A DNA stretch of 47,787 nucleotides from Candidatus Iainarchaeum sp. (GTDB taxonomy: Archaea; Iainarchaeota; Iainarchaeia; JAADDC01), in the NCBI GenBank assembly GCA_030445695.1, contig JASUTF010000003.1, positions 1-47,787 on the forward strand, given 5' to 3'. The notes under the pieces are model-generated. The model saw only the letters and a program-made list of their open reading frames with translations. It made no database searches and had not been told where the DNA came from. Below are positions 665-18,617 of this stretch, in pieces. Within the stretch, counting starts at the first letter, position 1, and each line of letters begins with the position of its first letter. The position numbers and the translations under genes were made by a program.

Positions 665-1229
665 CTCCTACCACCTCTGCAAGGTTCCTCACCAGCAGGA
701 TATCGGCAATCTCCTGCGGCAGCTCAGCGATCTCGCCGGCAGCGTAGGGGCCGTAGGTCTTGTAGTCGGTCCCTATGAACTCGGGAATTGCCTTTAAGAT
801 CTTAACACGAACGGTCTTTAAACGCTTCTCCTCTTCCTCCTTCTTCCCTTCCTCCTCCTTGAGCCCCACGAACACAAGTGCGCTGTCGCGGTACTTCCTC
901 ACCGTCTCCACAACGTCCCTGTAAAGGTCCTTCTCCCAGCCCACGAGGTTCTCCGGCTCCCACGCCTCGTCGAACATGCTGGCAAGGGCCAGTGAAACGA
1001 TCTTGCGCTGGCGGATCGCGATGATGTCGTTCACGAGCTTCACGAGGTTCGCGAAGAGGACAAGACGCTGGATGTCCTGCTCCTGCCAGGCAAGGTCCAC
1101 TTCCTTCTTCTCCCCCTCTATATACTCCCTCAGCAATCGGTAGAAGTCCGGCTCGAGGGGTGTGAGGCGCGTGCGGGACTGCTTCTCCAGCCGGTAAAGG
1201 TTCCTCAACCGCGAGTAGTTAATCTCCAA
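642..1229 (-). CDS. gins51: GINS complex subunit, Gins51/Gins15 type
   Basis: 195 aa with a helical N-terminal A-domain, an acidic linker and a C-terminal B-domain ([48 protein letters not shown]). It lies immediately downstream of and overlapping priS, the conserved archaeal priS-gins arrangement. Confidence 0.7.
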
Positions 1230-2455
1230 CTTGCAACCCCCTTGCTCAACAGGAATATACTAACATGAAGTGGTAGCTCCACATTTATATCCTCGAACGG
1301 TCCCCACGTCTCGCCGGCGAACTCGAACTCCGGTGCGAAGTCCACGTGGAGGTTCAGGTAGGGCCGCTCCGGGAGAGCCACGGCGTCCCTGTAGGGGTCA
1401 AAGGCATTTAAGTTATCCACGCTCTTGGCAAGCAGGCCTGTGCTCCCGTGTATGGAGTCAGGGACGCGGATCAGGCGGTGAATGTCGACGGACGTGTTGG
1501 TGTCGATCTCCTTCCCCATGAAGGGGGAAAGGGACCGGACAAGGGATGCAACGGACTCGAAGGCGTCCGCCTTCCTCGTGTCTATGAAGGGCCAGATGCC
1601 CTGCCTTATGAGTTCCACGATCCTTTCCCTGTCGCGCATGATCCTGCGGGCAGTGGAGGGGCTAACGCCTCTCCTGACGAGATCTGACACGTCCCGGGCA
1701 GAGGAGAGGATTGAGATGACGCCCCTCGCTATCCTCCCCTTCCAGCCGCCGTCCGTGGGTCTGGGGCCGACAATGGGCATTCTTGGCACGTCGAAGAAGT
1801 AGCGAACGTCGATCTTCTGCCCTGTGACGTATTCCACGATCTCTATGCGCGCCTCCTTGTCCAGTTCCCGGAGGGCAGGAGAGCGGACATGTATGTGGTA
1901 TCCCCTGTTTCCGGAGAAGTTTATGGAGATCTCCTTCTTTGATATGCCAAAATCGTCCACAAGAAAGTCCTTAATGAGGGTCTCGACCTCTTCCTTCAGT
2001 TTTTCCTCTCGCTCGGCGTCAGGAAACGTAACAACCTTCGTGGGCTCCCCGCACCTCGGACAGAACCCAACCCTGAACCCCTTCAGGTCTTTGACAAGGC
2101 CCCTTGCCCCGCAGGACGGGCAGACCCACAGATCGTTGGGCGCGAACAGTCCCAGTTCATCGGCGTCGAACTCGAATATGAGATCCGCTCCCAGGAGCCC
2201 CTTCGCCTCCATGGGGGTCGCTTCAGGCCGCTCAAAGTAGCCCACTGAGTAGGAAATGTAGAGGGGTGCCTCTTCCCGGAGGTAGCGGCGGAACTCCCGG
2301 GGTGAGACGAAGGATATGTGCCGCCGGACGATCTTCCTCCCGTAGTCGCCCACACCGAACTCCCTCTTCTCAAGGTCGGGGGGTGGCGGCACGTCGTGAG
2401 ACCGGTAATACCTGCGGAACGCGTCCTTCAGCACCCTTGCTATCATATCGCTCAC
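1205..2455 (-). CDS. priS: DNA primase small (catalytic) subunit PriS
   Basis: 416 aa carrying the AEP motifs LIFEFDADE (DxD), SGNRGYHIHV (SGxGxH) and LIRVPDSIHGSTGL, plus a zinc knuckle CPSCG...CPRCG. GTG 2455 overlaps the priL stop; an alternative ATG lies at 2446. Confidence 0.9.
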   Translation of the reverse strand: MSDMIARVLKDAFRRYYRSHDVPPPPDLEKREFGVGDYGRKIVRRHISFVSPREFRRYLREEAPLYISYSVGYFERPEATPMEAKGLLGADLIFEFDADELGLFAPNDLWVCPSCGARGLVKDLKGFRVGFCPRCGEPTKVVTFPDAEREEKLKEEVETLIKDFLVDDFGISKKEISINFSGNRGYHIHVRSPALRELDKEARIEIVEYVTGQKIDVRYFFDVPRMPIVGPRPTDGGWKGRIARGVISILSSARDVSDLVRRGVSPSTARRIMRDRERIVELIRQGIWPFIDTRKADAFESVASLVRSLSPFMGKEIDTNTSVDIHRLIRVPDSIHGSTGLLAKSVDNLNAFDPYRDAVALPERPYLNLHVDFAPEFEFAGETWGPFEDINVELPLHVSIFLLSKGVASWRLTTRG

Positions 2456-3354
2456 TGGAGCACCCCCAGATCACGGAGCATCTTGACAAGGGCTGGATCC
2501 GTGGATTCCACCTTCTTCAACCCCCAGGGGCGGATACCCTTCCTCTTGGCGAGGATCAGCTCGTCCTTAAGCCACGATTTCGTTATCTTGCCTCCGCTCT
2601 GCCGGGAAAGCCACTCTTCAAGGACGGGGAGCGCGTCCTCTGGCGCCATACCCTTCACGTTAACGAGGTATGGGGCAAGCCAGAAGAAGATGATACGCTT
2701 CCTCCCGTCGGGCAGACCGGAAGCACCCATGATCGACTCTATGAAGGAGTATCCTTTTGAACTGACGGGTTTTGACCTCTTTATGGGAACCGCTCGCCTC
2801 GCATAGTCAGCAAAGTGCTTCGGCACGCCCGAAACGTCAAGGGGGAGTCCCTTCCTGGCAAGGGTGTACGCCACATCTCCGGCGAAGAGGCGTGCGGTAA
2901 CATCGTCCAGATGCACGATACCGCCCCTCAGGTCCACGTGGTATAGGAGCGTTTCAGGATATATGTGCCTGTAACTCATGTAAACGGGCAGGGGAATGGC
3001 GGAGGGGTCTATACCGAGCTCGGCGAAGAGTTCGGAGGGATCGTGCTGCCGCACACGCTCAGCATAGAAGCGGCCGAGCAGATCGTAGTAATACTCGCTC
3101 CCCAGGATCGACGCGAATATGCGGAAGAGGATGAAATGCAGTATCTCCGTCCTCTCGTCCAGAACGGGCAGGTCAAAACGCCTGGAAAGGATCTCGCGGA
3201 AACGGTCAGAAGCAGCCGTAATTTCTAAATCCCCCACGCCCTCCATGGTGATCCCGAGACGCTCAGCACGCTTCGAGGCAGAGGGGAGAAAGGGGTAGAG
3301 GGCGTAGAACGACACCATGATAACATATGGACGGTGGTAAATGTAAGGATACAC
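2452..3354 (-). CDS. priL: DNA primase large subunit PriL-like, lacking all Fe-S cysteines
   Basis: Has the N-terminal YPF motif (YALYPFLPSASKRAE). The C-terminal region (GLPDGRKRIIFFWLAPYLVNVKGMAPEDALPVLEEWL) matches the PriL-CTD R/H-x-aRFaL-x-FL-x-x-G helix pattern. There is a 4-nt overlap with priS. The 300-aa translation contains no Cys. The likely true start is MVSFYALYPF at 3318. Confidence 0.65.
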   Translation of the reverse strand: MYPYIYHRPYVIMVSFYALYPFLPSASKRAERLGITMEGVGDLEITAASDRFREILSRRFDLPVLDERTEILHFILFRIFASILGSEYYYDLLGRFYAERVRQHDPSELFAELGIDPSAIPLPVYMSYRHIYPETLLYHVDLRGGIVHLDDVTARLFAGDVAYTLARKGLPLDVSGVPKHFADYARRAVPIKRSKPVSSKGYSFIESIMGASGLPDGRKRIIFFWLAPYLVNVKGMAPEDALPVLEEWLSRQSGGKITKSWLKDELILAKRKGIRPWGLKKVESTDPALVKMLRDLGVLQ

Positions 3355-3372
3355 GGTTCGGGTTTCGAACCG
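3354..3372. other. 7-bp-stem hairpin (cggttcg-ggttt-cgaaccg) between the PCNA gene and priL
   Basis: Perfect inverted repeat read directly from the sequence. It lies in the 5' region of priL if priL starts at 3318. Function unknown. Confidence 0.3.
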
Positions 3373-3387
3373 GAAAAGAAAGAGAGT

Positions 3388-4137
3388 TCAGAGTATCATT
3401 TGAGCCAGGAAGAAGGTCAGCCGTATGCCCCCTATCTCGTAGGAGATTTTCAGGGGCGTGTCGTTGCCAAAGACCATGGTTACGAACCCGTCGGGGTCCG
3501 CAGCACGCACTATGTTCTGAAGGAACGACAGGGAATACCTGGAGACCGCCTCCGGACCGCCCTCTATGGAAACGCCGTCTCCCTCCCTTGCAACGGTCCT
3601 CGTGACCCCCGTCTGGCCCTTCGCCTCCACCATGAACACGTCGTCCCGGGCAACCAGAACCGCTGAGGACGAGAAGATCCCGGCGTCCTTCAGGGCGTCC
3701 TTTATGATCCTGCCCAGAACTCTGACAGTCACAACGCCCTCCACCGGTGCTATCTCCGCCTCCCTGTCCGGAACGTCCATAAGCGGTATGTAAAACTCGC
3801 GGCGGAGCGTCCCGTTGGGCAGCTCCAGAAGAACGTAGAGATTCACGTCCTCCAGCGCCATCACGAGCCGGTCCTCGGAAGATGCGCGCGAGAGTATCTT
3901 CGTATACTCTGAAAGGTCTATGGGAACGCGTATGGGCGACTCCACGAGGTTATACTCCCTGAAGACAGATCTGGGGGCGAAGAAGTCCACCATAACGACC
4001 TGTGACGGGTCTATGGCTCGCAAGCGGACACCGTCGCTGTTAAAGTAGAATACGCCCTCGGGGAGAAAGGAGTAGAGGGCGTCCACCGCCTGCTTCCAGG
4101 GACGCGGATCCTCGAGGGAGACACGCAGTAGCTCCAT
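3388..4137 (-). CDS. pcna: DNA polymerase sliding clamp PCNA, paralogue B
   Basis: 249 aa. The N-terminus (WKQAVDALYSFLPEGVFYFNSDGVRLRAIDPSQVVMVDFFAPRSVFREYNL) follows the canonical PCNA pattern, and the length is typical. Confidence 0.9.
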   Translation of the reverse strand: MELLRVSLEDPRPWKQAVDALYSFLPEGVFYFNSDGVRLRAIDPSQVVMVDFFAPRSVFREYNLVESPIRVPIDLSEYTKILSRASSEDRLVMALEDVNLYVLLELPNGTLRREFYIPLMDVPDREAEIAPVEGVVTVRVLGRIIKDALKDAGIFSSSAVLVARDDVFMVEAKGQTGVTRTVAREGDGVSIEGGPEAVSRYSLSFLQNIVRAADPDGFVTMVFGNDTPLKISYEIGGIRLTFFLAQMIL

Positions 4138-4141
4138 GGTA

Positions 4142-4891
4142 TCAACCCGTCTCTATTCTGGGCGCCAGGAAGTATATGAAGTTCGCATCTCCTATCGCGT
4201 AGGCCAGCTTCAGCGGTGCATCCGTCGAAAGGGATATGGTAATCGCGGCGCTCTTGTTTGCCTGCGAGACCATGTCCTCCAGATAGTCCAGCGGATAGGA
4301 CGCTTTGGCACGCTCCGTAACGTTCAGGTCGAGGAGCGCGTCGTGCACGTCCTTCTTGAGCTCAAGAACGTATTCGCCCTTGCTGCCGGAGGCGCGCATC
4401 ACGAACTCCTCGGGCGTCACGTCAATGGTCACGTGCGTGGAGAAGTTGGACGCGTCGTCAAGGGCAGAGGCAAAGACGTCCGCAATGACCTTGGCCGTCG
4501 CGGTAAACGTAATCTTTGGCAGCGGGAGCTCCATGCCGCCGAGGTCAAGGACGGAGAGGACGAAACGCCTGCGTGCACGCCCCACGAGTTCGATCACGAG
4601 TCGAGAACCGTCCTCTGAAAGCGACATCTCAACGGACTCCGAGGCCTTCGCCTTCTTGAAGACGTCCTCGAGGTCGGAGAGGTTCAGCCCGATCTTCACA
4701 GGCCCGGGAACGTCGTATTCGCGGAAGGCGTGCTTCGGAAGGGAGAAGTCAACCATCGCTATCTTCGAAGGATCCGTGGCGCGGAGCTTCATGCCCTCCT
4801 CGTCAAATATGAACTCTCCCTCGTCTATCAAGGCAGAGAGCGCCTTGACGCTCTTCTTCATAACGTCCGCACTATCAAACACCACCTTCAT
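4142..4891 (-). CDS. pcna: DNA polymerase sliding clamp PCNA, paralogue A
   Basis: 249 aa. MKKSVKALSALIDEGEFIFDEEGMKLRATDPSKIAMVDFSLPKHAFREYDV follows the canonical PCNA pattern. It is clearly diverged from paralogue B. Confidence 0.9.
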   Translation of the reverse strand: MKVVFDSADVMKKSVKALSALIDEGEFIFDEEGMKLRATDPSKIAMVDFSLPKHAFREYDVPGPVKIGLNLSDLEDVFKKAKASESVEMSLSEDGSRLVIELVGRARRRFVLSVLDLGGMELPLPKITFTATAKVIADVFASALDDASNFSTHVTIDVTPEEFVMRASGSKGEYVLELKKDVHDALLDLNVTERAKASYPLDYLEDMVSQANKSAAITISLSTDAPLKLAYAIGDANFIYFLAPRIETG

Positions 4892-5264
4892 TGTAAACCC
4901 TCCTTTCCAGATCGCGTATTTGAGCGTAAAGGGCAGGATCCACGCCGTCCATATCCTGAACGACTTCCGCCCTAATTAATAGTCCATCCTCCGATTTATA
5001 AGCCCTGCCGAGAACGCGCACAAGGGCCCCCGGCTTGAGTTTCTCCGCAAAGAGGATGTCCTCAAGGATTACAAGGGCAATGCCAGTCCCGTCATCGATC
5101 TTGCCCTCCATCTTGTTCGTATCGAAATCAACAACGGTGCACAGAACCGAAACGCGTTCGCCCTCCCCCTGAATCTCGGAAATCGTCACATCCCTTGCAT
5201 GCATACGTCGGAGGGCCACGATAAATGCTGAGGGAAAGGGCATATAAATGACCTCTTCCATCAT
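4875..5264 (-). CDS. OB-fold nucleic-acid-binding protein, RPA32/Stn1-like small subunit (putative ssDNA-binding partner)
   Basis: Shows the pattern VSVLCTVVDFD...GKIDDGTGIALVILED...LKPGALVRVLGRAY...LIRAEVVQDM typical of RPA2/Stn1-type OB folds. It heads the replisome gene string. An alternative start MPFPSAF lies at 5243. Confidence 0.45.
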   Translation of the reverse strand: MMEEVIYMPFPSAFIVALRRMHARDVTISEIQGEGERVSVLCTVVDFDTNKMEGKIDDGTGIALVILEDILFAEKLKPGALVRVLGRAYKSEDGLLIRAEVVQDMDGVDPALYAQIRDLERRVYNEGGV

Positions 5265-5270
5265 TAGAGC

Positions 5271-6002
5271 ATGGACAGGGCACCCACTGGAATTGACGGT
5301 CTGGACGAGCTCATAGAGGGAGGCATACCAAGAAGGCGCATGGTCCTCGTATCCGGAAGCACAGGTACGGGGAAGACCATATTCTCCGCACAGTATATAT
5401 ACAGGGGGGCCGTGGACTACGGGGAGCCGGGAATATTTGTCACGCTCGACGAGCGCCCGTCAACTATCCGAGAGGACATGCTCCAGTTCGGCTGGGACTT
5501 CAAGGCACTCGAGGACAAGGGGATGATCCGGATCATCGACGGGACGGTAACAAAGGTCGGTATCCCGTCGGAGGAGGAGTACGCACTGCCTGAGACAGGG
5601 TTCAACCTCGACAAACTCCTGGTGGAAATCATAAAGGCAGTGAAGGAGATGGGGGTGAAGCGCCTCGTCGTTGACTCCCTCCCTGCTCTGGGGTTCAAAT
5701 ACGACACGGAGGCAGAGGTAAGGAAGGCGATCCTGAAGATGTCATACGTGCTGGCAAAGACGGGGGTCACGTCCATCGTCACCACTGAGATCCCGGAGAA
5801 CGCAGGGGTCTACTCCAAGTATGGGGTGGAAGAATACGTGGCAGACGGCCTTATAGTCCTCCGATACGGGGCTCTGGGCGGAAGGGCTACGAGAACGCTG
5901 CAGGTAAGAAAGATGCGTGGGACGAAGCACTCGGAGTTCGTCCACCCCTTAGAGATAACGAGGGAGAGGGGCATCGTCGTTTATCCGATTGAGGAGGTAT
6001 GA
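5271..6002 (+). CDS. KaiC/RadA-like single-domain RecA-superfamily ATPase (COG0467-like)
   Basis: TGIDGLDELIEGGIPRRRMVLVSGSTGTGKT (Walker A), RLVVDSL (Walker B), 243 aa. Confidence 0.8.
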   Translation: MDRAPTGIDGLDELIEGGIPRRRMVLVSGSTGTGKTIFSAQYIYRGAVDYGEPGIFVTLDERPSTIREDMLQFGWDFKALEDKGMIRIIDGTVTKVGIPSEEEYALPETGFNLDKLLVEIIKAVKEMGVKRLVVDSLPALGFKYDTEAEVRKAILKMSYVLAKTGVTSIVTTEIPENAGVYSKYGVEEYVADGLIVLRYGALGGRATRTLQVRKMRGTKHSEFVHPLEITRERGIVVYPIEEV

Positions 6003-6245
6003 TCACCCCTCCTTGTCAGAGACGCTCAGGGGCTGCTTGAAGTCAAAGAGTGAATCGTCGCTCCCGCCCTGTGGCGGATTCTGCGGTGCGGACGAGCCGC
6101 CGGGTGGCTCCTGCTCTTGGTGTCCGTGCTCCAGAATGTCCAGAATGTAGAGGTAGGCATCGATCAGCTCGTCCAGCTCCACACGCACCCTGTGCGTCTC
6201 CAGGAATATCTTCAACAGCTCGAGGGCGACCTCCTTGTTGTCCAT
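6003..6245 (-). CDS. small hypothetical protein with a helical N-terminus and a Pro/Gly/Gln-rich acidic tail
   Basis: Internal ATG (MDNKEVALELLKIFLETHRV...) of track ORF 6003-6374. The longer form would overlap the neighbouring divergent membrane-protein gene. Its stop directly abuts the KaiC-like stop. Confidence 0.4.
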   Translation of the reverse strand: MDNKEVALELLKIFLETHRVRVELDELIDAYLYILDILEHGHQEQEPPGGSSAPQNPPQGGSDDSLFDFKQPLSVSDKEG

Positions 6246-6278
6246 GTTTTGAAAAGGAGCAGGGGGTATATATTGGTG

Positions 6279-7724
6279 ATGGATCTCAACAAAGCAAAAA
6301 GATATGGGTGGATAGGAATACTTTTTCTCGCCGCCCTGCCCATGTTCTTGTTCAACACGTGGGCCCCATACCACACGGATTCGGCGGGCATTGCGCTAAG
6401 GGCTGAAGAAATACTCCACGGAAAGATACAGCCGGGCTGGAGATGGGGCACAGCTGTTGTGGAGGCGGTCCTCGGGGCACTACCATACTTCATAACGAGG
6501 GACAGGGTCTGGTTGCACATGGCTGGGGCCGCTGCAGGAATAATCGCGTTTCTGGTTGGACTCTACCTGCTGCTCGTAAGGGAGAGCAAAGACAGAACAT
6601 TCGCAGCTATGCTTACGCTGATCGGAGCGTTATCTCCCGCTGTACTGATCACAGGAACCATAGGGAAGGAGGACTTGCTCGCGATAGGAGAGATACTCCT
6701 CGGGGCAGCGATGGCGCCCGCAGGAATGGCACCGGCGGTCGTGGCGGGGGTTCTGTTCGGTCTGGCACTGGCATCCAAGGAGATGTCCTTTGCACTTGTT
6801 TACCTTGCCATTGTATACATCTTCACAAAGAACCGGAAGGCAGCGGCAGTGGCGGCAGGGACAACGATAATAACGTTGCCCCTGTGGCTCCCAATGCTGG
6901 AATTCGTCCTCAGCAGCCGTTCCGTGGGCATGGGAAAGTTCATGGGCTTCTGGAGTGGTTACCCATTCGTGCTGAGCGAACTCATAAAGGGTACGGGAGC
7001 GGCAGCGATTCTGGTGGGAATAGTGGCACTCGTACTGGCCATAAGATCCAAGCGATGGGATAACACCGTTCCACTGCTCCTCGCAGTGTTGTTGATACTG
7101 TATCTGGCGGGTGTGAGCGTCACCAGATACAGGAGTGCCGCGTGGGTCGTGCCGCTGCTCCTCCTGCCCGCCGCGAGACAGGGCGAGAGGTGGATGCGAT
7201 ACGGGATCTACGTATCGCTGCTCGTTGCCTTCATCGCCATGTTCGACATTATGCCAACGCTCGAGTTCAGGGCCGCCACGAACCTGCCAGGAAGCTATCC
7301 CTCCGGGGCGAGGGGCATCTTGGAAAGGAACGGGCTGATCCTTGCAATGGATTCCTCGGCACTGGTCCGCTTCTACACGGATCTGAACGTGAAAACGCAT
7401 AAACCATATCCAACGGAGGAAGAGGCAGCCCAGATACGTAAAGAAGTAGAAGAACTCGCAGGGAAAATGCCAGTATATATTTACCCCGACTACCTGGCGT
7501 ATGACAACGGGACGCTGGCAAGGGCACTGTCGGACCTGAACGTGACGCCCGTTTACACAGCGTGGTATAGGGATTACCACGCCGTCCCGATATATCCGAA
7601 AAAGGAGGAGTGGCTGAACAAGATAAGAGAAGCCGGCTACGTATACTACTTCCTGTCAAAACGGGCGGACAGCATTAACGGCGTTTCAGTCACCGTCGAG
7701 ACGTATAGGATCATCACCCCCTGA
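6279..7724 (+). CDS. polytopic membrane protein, possibly a GT-C fold (ArnT/PMT-like) glycosyltransferase, with a C-terminal soluble domain
   Basis: About 11 hydrophobic segments. The first loop (APYHTDSAGIALRAEEIL) resembles GT-C acidic loops. The start is set at ATG 6279 (MDLNKAKRYGW); the track start at 6117 overlaps the divergent gene. Confidence 0.45.
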   Translation: MDLNKAKRYGWIGILFLAALPMFLFNTWAPYHTDSAGIALRAEEILHGKIQPGWRWGTAVVEAVLGALPYFITRDRVWLHMAGAAAGIIAFLVGLYLLLVRESKDRTFAAMLTLIGALSPAVLITGTIGKEDLLAIGEILLGAAMAPAGMAPAVVAGVLFGLALASKEMSFALVYLAIVYIFTKNRKAAAVAAGTTIITLPLWLPMLEFVLSSRSVGMGKFMGFWSGYPFVLSELIKGTGAAAILVGIVALVLAIRSKRWDNTVPLLLAVLLILYLAGVSVTRYRSAAWVVPLLLLPAARQGERWMRYGIYVSLLVAFIAMFDIMPTLEFRAATNLPGSYPSGARGILERNGLILAMDSSALVRFYTDLNVKTHKPYPTEEEAAQIRKEVEELAGKMPVYIYPDYLAYDNGTLARALSDLNVTPVYTAWYRDYHAVPIYPKKEEWLNKIREAGYVYYFLSKRADSINGVSVTVETYRIITP

Positions 7725-7804
7725 CGGGAGAATGGGAGACGTTGATGTGGCGGTATACAGGGGCGTAGTCCTCGAAGGAGTAGCAAAAGTGCCGATATAC
7801 ATGG

Positions 7805-8857
7805 TCATTCCCTCAGCCGCACCGCCCTGACGTAACCACGGACGTTGAGGCGGCGGGTCTCCACAACACCCAAGGATTCCAGCTCCTTTATGTAGTTTCG
7901 GAACGCACGGAGCGTTATCTTATCCGCCCTGCGAACGTACTCCTCATACAGCTCCTTCACGGTGAGCTCTCCCCTCTCGCGGAGGATCTCCACGATGGGG
8001 ATGAACTTGGGGTCCACCGACTCGTGGCGCGACGACTTTATGAGCCCCTCAACGCGGCGCACGTGCTCAGGGGTTATTCTATCGGCACCTTCCCGCTCCG
8101 CAAGGACAGCCGCCTCGTAGAGGCAGGAGATTGCTGCCCTGGCGTCGCCGCCCCGCTTCCAGCCGATGGCTGCACAGAGGCCGATTACGTTCTCGTCATA
8201 CGTCCCCTCCGCCAGAGCGATTTTTGCCCTCTCGCGCAGGATGTCCTTGAGCTGGGGAACAGTGTACGGCGAGAACTCCACCTTTCTTGAGAAGAGCGTC
8301 GAGTATATGCGCGGGTCCAGGCGGTAGACGAAGGACTCGGAGTTGGCAATGGTGATGATGACCGTGGGGACTTCAAGAAACTCGTGGAGGCGGGAGAAAT
8401 CGTAGAGAACGTCGGTGGACTCCCTGGAGAGCCGGTCCACCTCGTCCAGAACAATCACGGCACCACGGGAGTCGTTGAGCCGGGCGAATATGCGGTCATA
8501 CGCCTCGTCCGGTGCCACACCCCTCCGGGGGACGGGTATGCGGAGCTCCTTGGCAAGGAAAGAGATGATGGAATACCTTGTGCGGTAGACCCAGCAGTTT
8601 ATGTATGTCTGGAACGTCAGGGGGGAGTAAGAAGAGAGTTCCCGGAGGATATAGCGGACGGATGCCGTTTTCCCCGTTCCCGGCGGGCCGACAACGAATA
8701 TATTCGAGGAGTGCCCAGTATCAAGCGCGTAGGATATTGCAGAGGCGATTTCCTTCATCTGTGCCTCACGGTGGGGGAGAACATCTGGAATGTAGTCCGT
8801 ATCGAGGACTTCCGGGCGGAGGAGGATTGTGGCACGGGGTTCCTCAAACAGGCCCAT
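7805..8857 (-). CDS. cdc6: Orc1/Cdc6 replication initiator
   Basis: 350 aa with GPPGTGKT (Walker A), VIVLDEVD (Walker B), an AAA+ lid and a C-terminal winged helix (LESLGVVETRRLNVRGYVRAVRL). Confidence 0.92.
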   Translation of the reverse strand: MGLFEEPRATILLRPEVLDTDYIPDVLPHREAQMKEIASAISYALDTGHSSNIFVVGPPGTGKTASVRYILRELSSYSPLTFQTYINCWVYRTRYSIISFLAKELRIPVPRRGVAPDEAYDRIFARLNDSRGAVIVLDEVDRLSRESTDVLYDFSRLHEFLEVPTVIITIANSESFVYRLDPRIYSTLFSRKVEFSPYTVPQLKDILRERAKIALAEGTYDENVIGLCAAIGWKRGGDARAAISCLYEAAVLAEREGADRITPEHVRRVEGLIKSSRHESVDPKFIPIVEILRERGELTVKELYEEYVRRADKITLRAFRNYIKELESLGVVETRRLNVRGYVRAVRLRE

Positions 8858-8876
8858 GAAGAAAAAGGGAAGGGGA

Positions 8877-8885
8877 TTTATAAAT
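8877..8885 (-). promoter_or_regulatory. TATA box for cdc6
   Basis: tttataaat centred about 24 nt upstream of ATG 8857, which implies a leaderless or very short-leader mRNA. Confidence 0.5.
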
Positions 8886-8911: not shown

Positions 8912-9223
8912 TCAACGGAGGAGCTTCCAGCGAATGACTGTAACGGGAGAATCGGGGGTAATATCGGGGTATATGCGGCGCAGGTGCTTTATGAGTGCGT
9001 TGAGCGACTTGAAGCCCTCCATTTTTATCTCGTGCTCCGATAGTTCCCTGAGCTTCTTGACGTAGACGTGCGTGATCTTGGCGCGGGCGATGGGCTTTCC
9101 CCGGACGGCCAGAAAGACGATGTTTCCTGGACGAACGTCGTAAGATCTTCCGTATCGGATGGTGATCCTCTTTTTCCCCGAGAGGACGTCCCTCTCATAC
9201 TCGGGGCGGAAATGGAGCATCAC
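8912..9223 (-). CDS. ASCH-domain protein, YqfB-like (candidate N4-acetylcytidine amidohydrolase)
   Basis: 103 aa. DVLSGKKRITIRYG ... ALIKHLRRIYPD ... VTVIRWKLL parallels my recollection of E. coli YqfB along its whole length. There is a 4-nt overlap with the upstream tmcA. Confidence 0.75.
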   Translation of the reverse strand: MMLHFRPEYERDVLSGKKRITIRYGRSYDVRPGNIVFLAVRGKPIARAKITHVYVKKLRELSEHEIKMEGFKSLNALIKHLRRIYPDITPDSPVTVIRWKLLR

Positions 9224-11502
9224 GATACTTCACCCAGGTACCATCTCGCCAGCCCGTAGAGGATCCTGTCGAGACGGCGCGCCACCTTCATGGGATCCTT
9301 GCCAAAGACGTCGCCGACGCCCTTCCACGTCCTCTTCTTCAGCACCTTCTCAATGAGGTATAAACGGTCCTTCTCCTCCATAGGGGGCTCCATCTTGCCG
9401 ATGAAGTAGTTGATGGTCATCCGGTATATGACCTCGGAGAGGGCGTCATAGTGCAGGCCACCCTCCACCATTCGCTTTAACTTCCTCTTCTCGGGGGTCG
9501 TCAGGTCGAGCGGGACGTCCCTCTTCTCGCCGGAAGAGAAGAGGAGAAGGGCAACCCGCGCCTCCATGTTCCTGTAGAAGTTGTCCAGCTCGTATGCGAG
9601 GCGCAACTTCATGCCGAAGTTTGAAACGTTCACTATGTCCTTGATGGCCGGACGCAGCGGGTAGAGAACCGCCGTGGAGTACTCTCCCGACTCGGGGTTG
9701 CGTTTCGGCGAGACGTGCACAGGGATAAACCCGTTCTTCATCCAGAAGCGGAGGAGCATGTCAGAGGAGCCGAAAACAGCCCCCACCCACGCATAGTCAT
9801 TATCTCTGGCGTAATCAATGAGGTTCTTCAGGGCAAACGACCCGATGCCCTTCCCCTGGAGTTCGGGGTGCGTGGCGATCCTCACCACGCGGAGGCCCTT
9901 GGCACGGGCGAAGTTGTCGTATCCGTAATACTTCAGCATGAGGTCGGGGATTATGTTGCCCTGGACGATCTCCCCCTCCTTGAGGAGGTCAATGACCGCC
10001 TTCGGAAGGCCGCCCTCTTCGGCTATCTGGAGGGAACAGACGATCTTTCCGGACTCCGTTCTAACGGCGAAGGCGTTCTGGTTAGGGGCGTCTGCAAGTA
10101 TTGCAACGTCGCGCGGGTTGTTTCTGTAGTGCGCGTAAACGTATATGCCGATGAACTGGCGGAGCGTTTCCTCGTCCTCGAGGAAGAGCTTCTCAACGTC
10201 CAGTTTCTCAAATACCAGACGGCCCTCTGCCACCTGCTTCAGATCTTCCTCCGTCAGGTCGGCCGGCTCGGCGTCGAGGAGGAAAACGTCGTAGAGCCAT
10301 TGCTCGATGGGGTCGCCCTCGCCGTAGCGGATCGGCTCGCTCATGCGGAGTGTTTTCACCTCGAACTTCTCCTGCAACGCCGGGAGAAAGCGGTACTGGA
10401 AGAGGCGGCCCGTTCCCTCGTAACCGTGGGTTGTAGTAGCGAAAACGATGCGTTTGTAACGCTGCATGAACGAGCGGAGTATGGACACGTATATGCCCGC
10501 CGCCTCGTCCACTACCAGTATATCCGCCTTCCTCTCCACCGCCTCCAGCGGCTCAAGGAAAACGACTTCTCCACCCTCCTTAACGCTAATTTCCCGCTTC
10601 TTCTCCTTGTACTCCTTTCCAAGCGCCTCAAGACCCGTCCTGATGAACCTGAACACCTCTTCGGCGTTCTGGAAGGAGGGAGCGGTCACAACGACCTTCC
10701 ACTTCTTGGAAGAGAGTATTCCGGCAAGGGCAAGACCCATGGCCGCCGATTTCCCCCTTCCCCTGTCTGCAAGTATGACGTAGGCGTGCTTCTTCGCCTT
10801 CGGGACGTTCTCAAGGGCATGGATAACGTCGATCTGATCCTGCGTCAGGGCGAGTTGATATATCTCATCGGGGAATTCGTGCTCCTTGGGTATCTTCAGC
10901 TTCCTTTTCCTCTTCTTTGCCTTCTTCTCCTTCGGGAGTTTAACGGGCTTCCCCTCGTCGGAGAGGATGTATATTCCGTCGTGCTCGAAGAGCTTCTTAA
11001 CAACGCGGTTGAGGAAGATGTCCCTGCAGTCCTTCACGGAGTATGGAGGGGTAACGACGTACTGTTCATGGAAGAAGAGTTTGGAAGATGCCCACTTCGG
11101 GAGTTCAGGGACGAGTAGGACAATAACGCCGGGGCCGCGAACCGTCTCGACGATGATGCCTATGTCCCGGGGCGGGAAGTTCTCGTACGCGTCCAGAACG
11201 AGAACATCGTATGTGCGCCCCAGAACGGAGGAAGCAATGGCGAATGGCTTCTTCTGGACGAGGTACCCGAGGCCGTGAACGTTACGGGCAAACTCCTTGA
11301 ATCGACGTTCCCCGATGTCCGACTCCTTGGGGAACTCCGCAAAGTAGAGGAGATCCCTTCCGACGAAGTCCCTCGCCTCGCGTAGGATCTGCCCCACTAC
11401 CTTCATGCCCTTCTTCCAGTCGCCGGATATGACGAAGAGCCGCCTCTGACGTGTAGCCGCAGCCGTCTCGAGTGCCTTCCTCACAAATTCCATGTCACTC
11501 AC
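9220..11502 (-). CDS. tmcA: RNA cytidine N4-acetyltransferase TmcA/NAT10 family (tRNA(Met) cytidine acetyltransferase)
   Basis: 760 aa with a DUF1726-like N-terminus, a helicase-type P-loop (ADRGRGKSAAMGLALA), a GNAT motif (RIATHPELQGKGIGSFAL) and a C-terminal tRNA-binding helical domain. Confidence 0.9.
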   Translation of the reverse strand: MSDMEFVRKALETAAATRQRRLFVISGDWKKGMKVVGQILREARDFVGRDLLYFAEFPKESDIGERRFKEFARNVHGLGYLVQKKPFAIASSVLGRTYDVLVLDAYENFPPRDIGIIVETVRGPGVIVLLVPELPKWASSKLFFHEQYVVTPPYSVKDCRDIFLNRVVKKLFEHDGIYILSDEGKPVKLPKEKKAKKRKRKLKIPKEHEFPDEIYQLALTQDQIDVIHALENVPKAKKHAYVILADRGRGKSAAMGLALAGILSSKKWKVVVTAPSFQNAEEVFRFIRTGLEALGKEYKEKKREISVKEGGEVVFLEPLEAVERKADILVVDEAAGIYVSILRSFMQRYKRIVFATTTHGYEGTGRLFQYRFLPALQEKFEVKTLRMSEPIRYGEGDPIEQWLYDVFLLDAEPADLTEEDLKQVAEGRLVFEKLDVEKLFLEDEETLRQFIGIYVYAHYRNNPRDVAILADAPNQNAFAVRTESGKIVCSLQIAEEGGLPKAVIDLLKEGEIVQGNIIPDLMLKYYGYDNFARAKGLRVVRIATHPELQGKGIGSFALKNLIDYARDNDYAWVGAVFGSSDMLLRFWMKNGFIPVHVSPKRNPESGEYSTAVLYPLRPAIKDIVNVSNFGMKLRLAYELDNFYRNMEARVALLLFSSGEKRDVPLDLTTPEKRKLKRMVEGGLHYDALSEVIYRMTINYFIGKMEPPMEEKDRLYLIEKVLKKRTWKGVGDVFGKDPMKVARRLDRILYGLARWYLGEVS

Positions 11503-12256
11503 CGTGGGCGTCCGCTATGTAGACCTCCGTGATCACCGAGAGGGACAGAACAAAGGAGATCGCCTGGTAGAGGACCAGGAGGAAGTCAGATGCCCACGGA
11601 GCCCGGAGAGCAATGAAGTCAAAGATGTAGAGGAGAAGGGTGGTAACGATGGAGACGGCGAGCATGTAGAGGATGATACGGATCCAGCGTCTCCTGCCAA
11701 CGAGGACGCCGTCACGCAGTGCCTTGGAAACGGTGTCTGCATCGATGACGAGGGCTGCCATGGAGGGCGCGACCACCGGTGTGTAGACGAGGAGGAAGAT
11801 GAGGAAGAGGGCGAACATGACAGTAAGTAAAGATATGCTGTAGGAGAAGTAGAGCATGAGGGTGAAGAAAACGGACACCGGTGCAAAAACGATTATGGAA
11901 AGGATTATGAATGGGATCAGAACGTCAACGGCCCTCTTGAACGGGTTCTCGGGGTAGCCCACGCGTTTCTTGGCGATCCAGCCGATGACCACGAGTGACA
12001 GATACGTCATCAGGACTCCGTAGATGAGGACGGAGAGGAGGACAAGGGGGTCTGAGAGGGCGGAGAGGGCATCGTAGAATGCAGACCGCATGGCGAGCAG
12101 GGGATCGGGCGATGCAAGGATCGTGAAGAAGTATGACGACTGGACCTCCGCAAGAGCAGATCCGAAGGCGTAGAACATACCGTAGAGGAAGAGAATGACC
12201 ACCGCGAGCAGGCCCAGATCAAAGGCGTCCGCCAGAACCCTCTTGAAGACGGCCAT
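11495..12256 (-). CDS. polytopic membrane protein, function unknown
   Basis: 253 aa with 5-6 hydrophobic helices. A TATA box lies about 27 nt upstream. Confidence 0.6.
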   Translation of the reverse strand: MAVFKRVLADAFDLGLLAVVILFLYGMFYAFGSALAEVQSSYFFTILASPDPLLAMRSAFYDALSALSDPLVLLSVLIYGVLMTYLSLVVIGWIAKKRVGYPENPFKRAVDVLIPFIILSIIVFAPVSVFFTLMLYFSYSISLLTVMFALFLIFLLVYTPVVAPSMAALVIDADTVSKALRDGVLVGRRRWIRIILYMLAVSIVTTLLLYIFDFIALRAPWASDFLLVLYQAISFVLSLSVITEVYIADAHGE

Positions 12257-12277: not shown

Positions 12278-12288
12278 GTATTTAAATG
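12278..12288 (-). promoter_or_regulatory. TATA box for membrane-protein gene 11495-12256
   Basis: gtatttaaatg centred about 27 nt upstream of ATG 12256. Confidence 0.45.
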
Positions 12289-12300
12289 CGCAAGCACGAG

Positions 12301-12310
12301 ATTTATAAAC
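12301..12310 (+). promoter_or_regulatory. TATA box for the acidic miniprotein gene
   Basis: atttataaac centred about 32 nt upstream of ATG 12338. Confidence 0.45.
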
Positions 12311-12337
12311 TCTACTCCGCCGTTGATAGCGATCGCC

Positions 12338-12496
12338 ATGGTGGAGGAGGAGAAGGAGAAGGAAGAGTACTACGAGGGTGAGGAGATCGACGAGGAAGAG
12401 TGGGAAGAAGAGGACTGGGACGAGGAAGAGTGGGACGAGGACTGGGACGAAGATGAGGACATAGAGGACGAGGACTACGACGAGGAAGAGTGGTAA
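12338..12496 (+). CDS. hyper-acidic Trp-rich miniprotein, 52 aa (below the ORF-track size cutoff)
   Basis: Own translation: MVEEEKEKEEYYEGEEIDEEEWEEEDWDEEEWDEDWDEDEDIEDEDYDEEEW*. It has its own TATA box. The 3' end overlaps the convergent AEP gene by 22 nt. Confidence 0.45.
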   Translation: MVEEEKEKEEYYEGEEIDEEEWEEEDWDEEEWDEDWDEDEDIEDEDYDEEEW

Positions 12497-13218
12497 GGGT
12501 CAAATTCTTCCAACTTCTTCCTACTGACGGGCAGCACAACAAGGCCGGAGATGCCGTTCAGCGTATACGGTAGACGGGCCAGGGAAACGCCGCCCGCGGT
12601 CACGGGAACGTCCACACCGTATGAGGCGTAGCGTCTTGCAAGTTCCACCCGCTCCTCTATAGTATAGAGGAACGTGTCCTCATCGCGGACGTGGATGTGG
12701 AAACCCCTGCCAGAGAAGACGATGCGTAAACGGGAGAACTCCTCGGCCAGGGCATCATAAAGGCGGATCACAGCATCTTTAACGGCGGGGAACTCCTCGG
12801 GGCCCACCTCATCACGCCTTTTCCCGGTCACCCTTTCCGGATCAACGTCGAACATCAGCTCCTGGCCCAGATAGTTGGGGCAGCGTTCGCATAGGTTCCT
12901 ACGCCTGAAGAACTTCAGGGGGCAGCCATAGCAGTATTCGGGGTCGGAAACAACGTTCCTCCAGTAATAGACGCCCTCCGGCAGGTATTTCAGGAGCTTG
13001 GCACGCAGGGCCTTGGGGTTCCGCACGTTCCGGAGATACACCATCCTGTATCCCTGCCGAACGAGGGAGAGCATGCGGTCAGTTGCTATACGCGTGTACC
13101 AGCCGGGGTTTATGGCAAAAACAGGGGTTGCAGATATGGTTCGGGCCCACGAGAAGGCATTCCGTGCATCGAAGGATCTGTAGAAGACCCTCCTCTCCTC
13201 GAGTGTGGGGGGAGGCAC
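12475..13218 (-). CDS. second, compact PriS-family archaeo-eukaryotic primase (AEP) / primase-polymerase-like protein
   Basis: 247 aa with all three AEP motifs: ELMFDVDPE (DxD), FSGRGFHIHV (SGxGxH) and LARLPYTLNGISGLVV (compare LIRVPDSIHGSTGL in PriS at 1205-2455). It has a PriS-like N-terminus (LEERRVFYRSF...LPEGVYYWRN) and a CxxC...CxxC knuckle (CYGCP...CERCP). GTG start. Confidence 0.75.
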   Translation of the reverse strand: MPPPTLEERRVFYRSFDARNAFSWARTISATPVFAINPGWYTRIATDRMLSLVRQGYRMVYLRNVRNPKALRAKLLKYLPEGVYYWRNVVSDPEYCYGCPLKFFRRRNLCERCPNYLGQELMFDVDPERVTGKRRDEVGPEEFPAVKDAVIRLYDALAEEFSRLRIVFSGRGFHIHVRDEDTFLYTIEERVELARRYASYGVDVPVTAGGVSLARLPYTLNGISGLVVLPVSRKKLEEFDPYHSSSS

Positions 13219-16462: not shown

Positions 16463-17242
16463 ATGCCCACCGTAGTGGTATCCAAGAGGGACATGGCGTC
16501 CGTTCTCATCGGTGAATACTTAACGGAGAACTACTTCGAGAAAACGGACAAGACCTTTGGCAACTACCACGTCTTCAGATACAAAAACGCGGACCTCATA
16601 ATCATCGACACGGAGCACATATATGCGGACTGGCTGGAAGAAAAGTACCCGTCGGACCTCTACATCGTTGCATCTCGCCACTCCGCGGAGTCGGGGATTC
16701 CGTGCCTCACGGTGCACACAACGGGAAACTGGGGGGACGCCATGTATGGCGGCAAGAGCAGAACGCTGTCGAGGGCCCCCGCACAGCACATGCTCTCGGC
16801 GCTCCGCTACCTGAAGGAACACCCCCTCGAAGGATTCTCCGTCTCCTACGAGGTGACGCATCACGGCCCCACCACAGAAACCCCCATCATGTTCGTGGAG
16901 GTGGGGAGCACGGAAAACGAGTGGGGAAACGAGGAAGCGGCAGCGGTGGTGGCCGAGGCAATAATCGCCGGGCTCGAGCCGGAGAAGGTGCCGACCGCCA
17001 TAGGGGTGGGCGGCGGCCACTACGCACCCCGCTTCACCGAGATAGCCCTGAAGAAGAGTATAGCGTTCGGCCACATGGCACCGAGATACGCCTTCGACTA
17101 TTTGGACGAGTACATGCTTCGTCAGGCGGTGGAAAAGACCGTCCCGAGGCCGGAGTACTACGCGATGCACGGGGTGAGCGAAGAGGTAAAGGAGACATTG
17201 GAGGAAATAGTGGAGGAATACGGTCTGCAGAGGATCAGGTGA
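16463..17242 (+). CDS. dtdA: D-aminoacyl-tRNA deacylase, archaeal DTD2 type
   Basis: ASRHSAESGIPCLTVHTTGNWG, SYEVTHHGPT, GVGGGHYAPRF and IAFGHMAPRYA match the DTD2 signature blocks. 259 aa. Confidence 0.88.
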   Translation: MPTVVVSKRDMASVLIGEYLTENYFEKTDKTFGNYHVFRYKNADLIIIDTEHIYADWLEEKYPSDLYIVASRHSAESGIPCLTVHTTGNWGDAMYGGKSRTLSRAPAQHMLSALRYLKEHPLEGFSVSYEVTHHGPTTETPIMFVEVGSTENEWGNEEAAAVVAEAIIAGLEPEKVPTAIGVGGGHYAPRFTEIALKKSIAFGHMAPRYAFDYLDEYMLRQAVEKTVPRPEYYAMHGVSEEVKETLEEIVEEYGLQRIR

Positions 17243-18617
17243 GCTGTTCCCCTATAACCTCGTCGAGCTCTCTTAGGAACTCCTCCTCCGCTCCCCTTGG
17301 TATCCTTGCACCGGCTGCGGGCCGGTGGCCGCCCGCCTCTCCGCCCACGTGGGCAGCTGCCCTCCTCATGGCCTCCGCCAGATCCAGACCCTTGCGCACA
17401 AGGGAAGAACTGGCACGGGCAGACACCTTGACGAAGCCCTCTTCCTCATACGCCATGCCCACTATGGGCCGGTCAGGCGGGACGATACCGGAACCGTAGA
17501 CCATGCCCGCCACGATGCCCACGAGGGACGCCGGAATGAAGGAACGGGCGTGGAAGAAGTAAAAGTTTCCGTAATCCTCTATGCCGTACTTCTCCACCCA
17601 CTCTATTCCCCTACGCAGGGCCTCCCTGTGCTCGTGCAGAAGTTTGAGCGCCTCTGAATACCAGCGGTCGCGGTCGCCCATGGCAACGTGAACGCCGACC
17701 TCCGGGCGTCCATGCCGTCCACAGGCGTTGAGGAGCGTAGCGTACTCCCGGACGTCACGCAGGGGGGAGTGCAGATCCTCGTCCGTGAGCTCGTACACCT
17801 CGCCTATGAGCTTGGCGATTTTTTCCTCGCTCCAACCGGCACGGGAGAGGTAGAGGGCAAGTTCCGTGAAGAGATGTCTTTTCTCCTCCTCGTTCAGATC
17901 CACATATGATATCCAGACGCCCTCGCGCACGTATTCTATCCCTGCACGGCGGAGAAGGTCAAAGACGGCGTCCTCGTTCGCCGTCAGCCCGGGAAGCACG
18001 GGATCAGACGAGTAGACGAACATGTAAGGCAGCGGCCTCGATGCCCTGCCGTAGAGCGCCAGATCCCTGTATGCGAATACCTTTCCGGAAGCGATGGCAT
18101 CCCTTAGAACAACATCACGGTTGTAGCCGGTTAGGGCGCCCCGCACGAGCTGCACGTCGCCCACCGCACCGACCACCGCAACGGGTGCAAGGGAGATGTC
18201 GCCGGTGAGCACCCTGGCGAGGGCGTATGCCACGCCTGCCCCGCTGATCTCATGGGCCCCGTCCAGGCCGAAGAAGTGGGGGTGCAGAAGAAGGGGGTAG
18301 TCCTCCCCTTTCGGTATCTGGTGGTGATCCAGAACCACGAAGGGCTTCCCGAAACTGCGACGGAGCGTGGGGAGCTGGCCCACGCCGAGGTCCGCAAAGA
18401 TGAAATGCTCCCCCATGTCCTGGATACGCTCGATGTCGTCGGTGTAGAGCTGCTTGAGGTTGATAAAACGCACTTCCTTACCCATCTGCTCCAGGGCGGA
18501 GACGAGGATGGCCGTGGATGTGATACCGTCCGCGTCGTAGTGCCCCACCACAACAACGTCGTCCCAGCCACGCACAACGTTCGCTATCCTCTTTGCCAGT
18601 TCCAGAAAGCCGTCCAC
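17235..18617 (-). CDS. DHH/DHHA1 phosphoesterase, archaeal RecJ/Cdc45-like nuclease (GAN/HAN family)
   Basis: VVVGHYDADGITS (motif I/II), VVLDHHQIP (DHH) and GGEAGGHRPAAGARI (DHHA1 GGH). 460 aa. Confidence 0.8.
   Translation of the reverse strand: MDGFLELAKRIANVVRGWDDVVVVGHYDADGITSTAILVSALEQMGKEVRFINLKQLYTDDIERIQDMGEHFIFADLGVGQLPTLRRSFGKPFVVLDHHQIPKGEDYPLLLHPHFFGLDGAHEISGAGVAYALARVLTGDISLAPVAVVGAVGDVQLVRGALTGYNRDVVLRDAIASGKVFAYRDLALYGRASRPLPYMFVYSSDPVLPGLTANEDAVFDLLRRAGIEYVREGVWISYVDLNEEEKRHLFTELALYLSRAGWSEEKIAKLIGEVYELTDEDLHSPLRDVREYATLLNACGRHGRPEVGVHVAMGDRDRWYSEALKLLHEHREALRRGIEWVEKYGIEDYGNFYFFHARSFIPASLVGIVAGMVYGSGIVPPDRPIVGMAYEEEGFVKVSARASSSLVRKGLDLAEAMRRAAAHVGGEAGGHRPAAGARIPRGAEEEFLRELDEVIGEQLT

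Follow-up and report, generated by a model that had tools for sequence, protein, structure and literature searches.

A stretch of 47,787 nucleotides (nt) from Candidatus Iainarchaeum sp. (contig JASUTF010000003.1; here called the window) was analyzed, with a focus on a short ASCH-domain gene that overlaps the end of the gene for a TmcA/NAT10-type RNA cytidine N4-acetyltransferase, a writer of N4-acetylcytidine (ac4C). The main features of the locus were as follows.

8912..9223, minus strand: ASCH-domain gene of the YqfB clade, assigned from Pfam, an AlphaFold2 (AF2) model, Foldseek and invariant residues.
9218..9223, minus strand: overlapping stop/start junction GTGATG, read from the sequence.
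9220..11502, minus strand: gene for the TmcA/NAT10-type RNA cytidine N4-acetyltransferase, assigned from three family domains and invariant columns.
9230..9235, minus strand: Shine-Dalgarno-like GGGTGA within the end of the TmcA coding region, read from the sequence.

The ASCH open reading frame (ORF) had been pointed out by an earlier sequence-only reading of the window, and it was found on the same strand as TmcA, overlapping its end, with a translation exactly as quoted there. The product consists of 103 amino acids (aa) when read from GTG 9223, or 102 aa from ATG 9220. At the junction (tcGTGATGctc), the TmcA stop codon TGA occupies positions 9222-9220, and the overlap with TmcA amounts to 4 nt from the GTG and to 1 nt from the ATG. 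The 4-nt overlap and 103-aa product given in the sequence-only reading hold for the GTG start, but the 102-aa form is more likely to be the actual product, because the ATG was kept in all close homologs whereas the codon before it varied (GTG, TTG, ATG). An ATG overlapping the TGA stop was also seen in close relatives (L006-L008). The GGGTGA motif, whose end is 6 nt from the GTG and 9 nt from the ATG, may act as a ribosome-binding site; most other loci with the pair had a GGTGA or GGAGG motif 7-14 nt 5' of the ASCH gene.

The upstream gene encoded a complete TmcA/NAT10-type enzyme, with the Pfam domains TmcA_N (PF08351, 111 bits), NAT10_TcmA_helicase (PF05127, 192 bits) and GNAT_acetyltr_2 (PF13718, 123 bits). 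None of the 70 columns invariant across 24 archaeal TmcAs was missing; they included the Walker A motif RGRGK (residues 247-251), DEAA (332-335), and G552 and G554 of the GNAT domain, which we take to function in ATP and acetyl-CoA binding. The length of 760 aa assumed by the sequence-only reading corresponds to the start at GTG 11502; a start at ATG 11493 is more likely, as the resulting 757 aa equal the length of a 100%-identical database homolog (P0014). No match to tRNA_bind_2 (PF13725), which many homologs possess, was found in the window TmcA at E <= 0.01, although its C-terminal 140 residues were present and aligned with other archaeal TmcAs; PF13725 is not required for membership in the TmcA family. 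Close relatives of the window TmcA also gave no PF13725 match. The ASCH-linked TmcA of Aciduliprofundum boonei has one, and the absence of a match therefore does not track with ASCH linkage.

The ASCH protein matched the Pfam ASCH family (PF04266) with 63.7 bits (E 2.8e-17) against a cut-off of 21.2, residues 3-101 corresponding to positions 1-101 of the 103-position profile, which bore out the family assignment of the sequence-only reading. The AF2 model had a predicted local distance difference test (pLDDT) score of 94.2, and its strands and helices followed the order expected for a PUA-like beta-barrel with flanking helices. In a Foldseek search of the PDB, the top 21 fold matches were all ASCH proteins. 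Ranks 1-3 were the YqfB entries 9kyh and 9kyf, with template modeling (TM) scores of 0.82-0.83, and the best match was 9kyh_B, YqfB with bound ac4C (TM 0.83, root mean square deviation 1.9 Å, all 103 columns). Other matches included PH0355 (TM 0.76) and the structures of ZmASCH from Zymomonas (TM 0.67-0.70). When a profile of 64 homologs was searched against the PDB, YqfB took ranks 1 and 2 (E 2.9e-8 and 7.4e-8), the former covering residues 6-102, and hhalign of the ASCH family against YqfB gave a probability of 96%. BLASTP against YqfB of Escherichia coli K-12 showed 23% identity (E 5e-7), and a single-sequence search of PDB sequences retrieved YqfB with a weak E of 0.13.

The full-length parallel with YqfB drawn in the sequence-only reading is thus real but distant. 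With the NCBIfam equivalog model for YqfB (NF003443), the protein scored 30.5 bits against a cut-off of 93, and for this reason it is, by sequence, a member of the YqfB clade and not YqfB in the ortholog sense. For annotation, the gene would best be named putative YqfB-clade ASCH-domain ac4C amidohydrolase, neither hypothetical protein nor YqfB. An exhaustive profile search for the family yielded 968 cluster representatives at E <= 1e-10, which fell into two length classes, a short form of approximately 100-115 aa and a long form of approximately 185-200 aa.

The octapeptide of the window protein, G16-K-K18-R-I-T21-I-R23, fits G-x-K-x-x-[T/S]-x-R, with Thr/Ser and not Glu at the sixth position. 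A Thr at this position distinguishes the YqfB clade as defined in two 2026 preprints (bioRxiv 10.64898/2026.02.27.708502; bioRxiv 10.64898/2026.08.01.741249). Further conserved positions were E69-G70-F71 and Y85. In the alignment, K18, T21, R23, E69 and Y85 corresponded to K21, T24, R26, E74 and Y89 of YqfB. In YqfB, the mutations K21A, T24A and R26A abolish activity, and E74A slows the enzyme 100- to 1000-fold (PMC6972931). The Lys/Thr/Glu triad, whose conservation the sequence-only reading had left to be checked, was accordingly found intact as K18, T21 and E69, together with the oxyanion-hole Arg (R23). Among 19 diverse TmcA-linked relatives, K18, T21, R23, G70 and Y85 were invariant and position 69 was always E or D.

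In its charge, the protein departed strongly from YqfB. It had an isoelectric point (pI) of 10.5 and a net charge of +12.9, and was the most basic of the 23 proteins of the window, whereas the pI of E. coli YqfB is 4.7. A strongly basic charge was typical of the TmcA-linked archaeal ASCH members, unlike YqfB.

To survey the neighborhoods of TmcA, one genome per species was scanned with an alignment of archaeal TmcAs, which gave 80 TmcA loci, and ASCH genes were identified with a local hidden Markov model (HMM) of the subfamily. A subfamily member was present in 25 of the 80 loci. In 23 it was directly downstream of TmcA on the same strand; the remaining two were a gene upstream of TmcA and divergent from it (L047), and one located 2 kilobases (kb) downstream that carried a C-terminal extension (L010, Undinarchaeota). 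Of the 23 linked loci, 21 had an ASCH start codon within the 3' end of TmcA, with overlaps of 1 to 71 nt, and the other two had gaps of 5 nt and 70 nt. Going by their record titles, the linked loci comprised relatives of the window under the labels Micrarchaeota, Iainarchaeum or uncultured archaeon, as well as Bathyarchaeia, Nezhaarchaeales, Methanomethylicota, Candidatus Scotarchaeum, Archaeoglobus, Ferroglobus, several Thermoplasmatota and one metagenome-assembled genome of Nitrososphaerota. Cultured Aciduliprofundum boonei has the pair with a 47-nt overlap. Within the 80 loci, the HMM found no member of the subfamily beside TmcA in those of Thermococcus, Desulfurococcales, Thermofilaceae, Sulfolobales and Nanopusillus.

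Two homologs with 62-64% identity were encoded directly after TmcA in a fully syntenic neighborhood. Between lineages, the flanks of the pair were unrelated, forming 16 clusters among 20-21 loci on each side. Across lineages, the pair alone is conserved and not its neighbors, and the adjacency that the sequence-only reading had suggested surveying is thus kept in many lineages with differing flanks. In addition, five family members outside the scan were looked up; three of them were of the short form, and two of these were linked to TmcA. In E. coli K-12, a distance of 447 kb separates yqfB from tmcA, which bears out the statement of the sequence-only reading that the two are unlinked in this species.

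In four loci of Desulfurococcales/Acidilobaceae, an ORF of approximately 150 aa with a G-x-K-x-x-E-x-R motif followed TmcA on its own strand at a distance of 1.5-2.4 kb (L036 4445-4900, L040 7974-8456, L060 6835-7326 and L069 7856-8398). Three of the four gave sub-threshold Pfam ASCH matches (18-19 bits against 21.2), and the ORF of L069 had no Pfam match. These ORFs may represent a looser link of TmcA to a Glu-type ASCH clade.

With regard to transcription, the following additional features were identified around the pair.

8876..8884, minus strand: TATA-like box TTTATAAAT, approximately 23 nt upstream of the Orc1/Cdc6 start codon ATG 8857.
9140..9365, strand not assigned: single metatranscriptome contig over the TmcA/ASCH junction (run X13, record 213359).
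11495..12256, minus strand: gene for a 253-aa protein with approximately six hydrophobic segments, first in the local operon, read from the sequence.
12279..12286, minus strand: TATA-like box TTTAAATA, approximately 26 nt upstream of the start codon ATG 12256, located by eye.
12301-12309, minus strand: second TATA-like box TTTATAAAT, read from the sequence.

The stop codon of the 253-aa membrane-protein gene ends 1 nt before the TmcA ATG 11493, and TTTAAATA is likely to be the promoter of a transcript carrying the membrane-protein, TmcA and ASCH genes. No TATA-like or A/T-rich box was seen by eye within 120 nt upstream of the ASCH start, which consisted of GC-rich coding sequence, and a separate transcript for the ASCH gene appears unlikely. 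The spacer after the ASCH stop codon is 54 nt long and holds the TTTATAAAT box at 8876..8884, which may function as the promoter of Orc1/Cdc6 and mark the downstream boundary of the unit. Since one box precedes the membrane-protein gene, none precedes the ASCH gene and the next follows the ASCH stop codon, the local unit would consist of the membrane-protein, TmcA and ASCH genes. The junction-spanning metatranscriptome contig (226 nt, word depth 2.4, one mismatch) agreed with co-transcription of TmcA and ASCH; as one low-depth contig, for which carry-over of DNA is possible, it is a weak indication. The same DNA was also found in metagenomes of subsurface, hydrothermal vent, sediment and oil origin. 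An Rfam search of the whole window returned no RNA family.

The 253-aa membrane protein gave no significant Pfam match. Its homologs upstream of TmcA were confined to L001-L009, the clade of the window itself, and it was rejected on this ground as a third partner of the pair.

YqfB-clade ASCH genes in a conserved operon with TmcA/Nat10 orthologs have been reported in an August 2026 preprint that includes comparative genomics from the Aravind group, in which the operon is taken as support for YqfB acting on ac4C (bioRxiv 10.64898/2026.08.01.741249, Fig. S1a). The arrangement is the same as in the window, where an ASCH gene of the YqfB clade adjoins that of a TmcA ortholog. The genomic link between a writer and a remover of ac4C, put forward in the sequence-only reading, is therefore supported by family, residues and conserved adjacency, but is not new. 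The preprint devotes one sentence and a supplementary figure to the operon, in "several prokaryotes"; the present analysis adds the count of 23 of 80 loci, the overlapping starts, the unrelated flanks, the shift to a basic charge relative to YqfB, and the probable identity of Afu2ASCH, an Archaeoglobus fulgidus protein already studied in the laboratory.

In a February 2026 preprint, which is silent on gene context, 19 ASCH proteins were tested, among them three A. fulgidus and six Pyrococcus kukulkanii proteins, and all stripped ac4C from tRNA in vitro (bioRxiv 10.64898/2026.02.27.708502). One of them, Afu2ASCH (UniProt O28749), is of the GKTR type, without an extra helix-turn-helix (HTH) domain and with a basic pI; it hydrolysed ac4C fully within 4 h, cut the ac4C content of tRNA in E. 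coli despite the presence of TmcA, and removed ac4C12 from wheat-germ tRNA (bioRxiv 10.64898/2026.02.27.708502). The primers used for its cloning encode the ends MERINL... and ...FEVVK (bioRxiv 10.64898/2026.02.27.708502). Matching ends were found in the TmcA-linked proteins of Archaeoglobus sp. (...EKINFD ... HFEVVD), Ferroglobus and L054 (MERINFD...), and a search with the primer pattern matched L054 alone. Because of these primer-encoded ends, Afu2ASCH is a probable ortholog of the TmcA-linked ASCH proteins. The approach was validated with Afu3ASCH, since its primer reading (MKHLEF) matched a 177-aa Archaeoglobus long form exactly. Like the window protein, Afu2ASCH is a short, basic, GKTR-type archaeal ASCH protein; the two differ in that they are only approximately 33-35% identical, as judged via the related L054 and L066 sequences.

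Taken as a whole, we consider it probable that the two genes form an ac4C writer/remover pair on one mRNA, in which the ASCH protein is a predicted ac4C amidohydrolase for RNA or its fragments and for the free nucleoside. TmcA would acetylate cytidines in RNA, using ATP and acetyl-CoA. The ASCH protein, translated from the overlapping start codon, would then act as a YqfB-clade ac4C amidohydrolase, with Lys18 as base, Thr21 as nucleophile, Glu69 as acid and Arg23 forming the oxyanion hole, by analogy with YqfB, and with cytidine and acetate as products. Its substrate would be ac4C still contained in RNA or RNA fragments, plus the free nucleoside. It would thereby clear acetyl groups from degraded or accessible RNA for reuse of the cytidine, and its production would be tied to that of TmcA. 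The fold, the active-site residues, the overlapping frames and the conservation of the pair across archaeal lineages are shown by the analysis; hydrolysis of ac4C by the window protein and the nature of its cellular substrate are inferred.

Action on RNA or its fragments besides the nucleoside is proposed because the ASCH protein is very basic, and is favored with moderate confidence. The tested ASCH proteins, Afu2ASCH included, strip ac4C from tRNA in vitro, and the TmcA-linked members as a group are strongly basic.

Several points weigh against an RNA-acting remover of the YqfB type encoded beside its writer. The score with the YqfB equivalog model was far below its cut-off, and two of the seven residues listed as invariant in YqfB-like proteins (PMC6972931) are changed in the window protein (D27 to Y24 and H70 to E65). 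Ala mutants of YqfB at D27 and H70 are still active, H70A being approximately 10-fold slower (PMC6972931). In gel-shift assays, Afu2ASCH, though basic, was not among the tRNA-binding proteins (bioRxiv 10.64898/2026.02.27.708502). Moreover, its probable orthology to the TmcA-linked proteins is based on the primer-encoded termini, and a protein search did not return Afu2ASCH itself. If writer and remover were expressed together and acted at identical RNA sites, ATP and acetyl-CoA would also be wasted. In vivo, YqfB and EOLA1 affected free ac4C but not RNA-bound ac4C (bioRxiv 10.64898/2026.02.27.708502; bioRxiv 10.64898/2026.08.01.741249).

In a narrower account, the ASCH protein would serve salvage only, as YqfB and EOLA1 do in cells, deacetylating free ac4C nucleoside or nucleotide released by RNA turnover and never intact RNA. 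Cytidine would thereby return to pyrimidine salvage, and the linkage to TmcA would scale salvage capacity to the ac4C produced. YqfB acts on ac4C with a kcat/Km of ~2e6 M-1 s-1, and nucleic-acid binding was not detected for YqfB-type enzymes (PMC6972931; bioRxiv 10.64898/2026.02.27.708502). The ac4C content of tRNA was unchanged on deletion of yqfB (bioRxiv 10.64898/2026.02.27.708502), and loss or overexpression of EOLA1 shifted free ac4C, not RNA-bound ac4C (bioRxiv 10.64898/2026.08.01.741249). In addition, a futile cycle would be avoided, and other clade members adjoin genes of nucleoside or nucleotide metabolism (the RuBisCO large subunit for P0195, and a HAD hydrolase for the Thermococcus long form). 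However, a charge of +12.9 on 103 residues, typical of the TmcA-linked members, has no obvious use with a nucleoside, and all 19 tested proteins, Afu2ASCH among them, strip ac4C from tRNA in vitro. Salvage alone is a possible but somewhat doubtful explanation.

A bolder proposal, which we regard as unlikely, is a physical complex of writer and eraser in these archaea, composed of TmcA and the basic ASCH protein, that would proofread or reset RNA acetylation, for instance by stripping unfolded or off-target sites. If true, such a complex would set the temperature-dependent ac4C pattern, beyond the recycling of nucleosides.

More doubtful still is a role without catalysis, in which the ASCH protein would assist TmcA as a reader of ac4C or as an RNA-binding adaptor, steering the enzyme to its substrates or holding its products. 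THUMPD1 and Tan1 are adaptors of this kind for NAT10 and Kre33. The PUA-like fold of ASCH proteins is an RNA-binding fold, the window protein is very basic, and overlapping frames would suit production in fixed proportion, as for the subunits of a complex. Nevertheless, the full set of residues essential for YqfB catalysis has been kept across divergent lineages, which binding alone would not need, and the relatives are active enzymes. A role in RNA decay as a single-strand-specific ribonuclease like ZmASCH is very improbable: ZmASCH structures are among the fold matches, but YqfB fits far better (TM 0.83 against approximately 0.69), ZmASCH is approximately 40 residues longer, and the octapeptide carries the Thr of YqfB where ZmASCH and other GKER-type proteins have Glu. 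That the adjacency is an inherited gene order without functional meaning is scarcely credible. The whole neighborhood is syntenic within the clade of the window (from Lhr via TmcA, ASCH and Cdc6 to PCNA and PriS), but across lineages the pair alone is kept among unrelated flanks, its frames overlap in 21 of 23 loci, and by a rough estimate a family of one to a few copies would by chance be directly after TmcA in far fewer than one in 80 genomes.

The closest characterized counterpart of the ASCH protein is the N4-acetylcytidine amidohydrolase YqfB of E. coli (PDB 1TE7, 9KYF, 9KYH), likewise a stand-alone ASCH beta-barrel of approximately 103 aa with G-x-K-x-x-T-x-R and five equivalent residues. 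The window protein differs from it in sequence (23% identity), in lacking D27 and H70, in pI and in forming an operon with TmcA. Human EOLA1, a free-ac4C deacetylase of the TRIP4-like clade, shares the ASCH fold, the octapeptide Lys and Arg, and action on ac4C (bioRxiv 10.64898/2026.08.01.741249). It belongs to another clade, with Glu in place of Thr in the octapeptide, and was a distant fold match (TM 0.51, E 0.035). The reversibility of ac4C in RNA is still debated; the two 2026 preprints disagree on whether ASCH proteins are erasers acting on RNA or recyclers of the free nucleoside only. Archaea in which expression of writer and remover is fused and the remover is strongly basic offer a natural test ground, and cultured Aciduliprofundum or Archaeoglobus could be used.

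The long archaeal ASCH-HTH proteins (Afu3ASCH, Pku4ASCH and relatives) share the YqfB-clade core K-x-x-T-x-R and matched the family profile with E of 1e-22 to 1e-25. They are 177-198 aa long, with an extra C-terminal tRNA-binding HTH (bioRxiv 10.64898/2026.02.27.708502), and, unlike the window gene, their genes are not directly beside TmcA. In Thermococcus, the end of a HAD-family hydrolase gene and the long-form gene overlap, with a SIR2 gene nearby (L088 4294-5560), and in Archaeoglobus the long-form gene overlaps an MGS-domain gene (L089 4532-5534). A HAD phosphatase together with a deacetylase would fit the processing of ac4C nucleotides. Further, the gene for P0195, a divergent clade member of 118 aa with a KTSTIR motif, shares 23 nt with the beginning of a gene for the RuBisCO large subunit (L094 919-2581; L095 1248-2910). 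Archaeal form III RuBisCO works in nucleoside salvage, and this overlap therefore hints at a nucleoside-level role for some members of the clade.

Beside the pair, the window contained a cluster of replication genes (1205-8857), comprising PriS (1205-2455), PriX (2452-3354), two PCNA paralogs (3388-4137 and 4142-4891), a Ten1-like OB-fold protein (4875-5264), a KaiC-family ATPase (5271-6002, plus strand) and Orc1/Cdc6 (7805-8857). The order of the replication genes was shared with L001 and L004. A functional tie of these genes (Orc1/Cdc6, PCNA, primase) to the pair was considered and rejected, as the synteny is specific to the clade of the window. The surroundings of cdc6 showed no origin-type repeats. 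An ORF of 535 aa (6117-7724, plus strand), located between cdc6 and the KaiC-family gene, encoded a multi-pass membrane-like protein without a Pfam family; in L001 and L004 this place is taken by just two small genes, and the ORF may be an insertion.

On the other side of the pair, two ORFs were absent in L001 and L004. One, of 57 aa (12323-12496, plus strand), consisted almost entirely of Glu, Asp and Trp and was encoded by 12-18-nt repeats, and the other, of 247 aa (12475-13218, minus strand), contained a partial DNA_primase_S domain (40 bits). Additionally, a D-aminoacyl-tRNA deacylase gene (16463-17242, plus strand) and a DHH/DHHA1 RecJ-like gene (17235-18617, minus strand) were found to converge, with overlapping ends.

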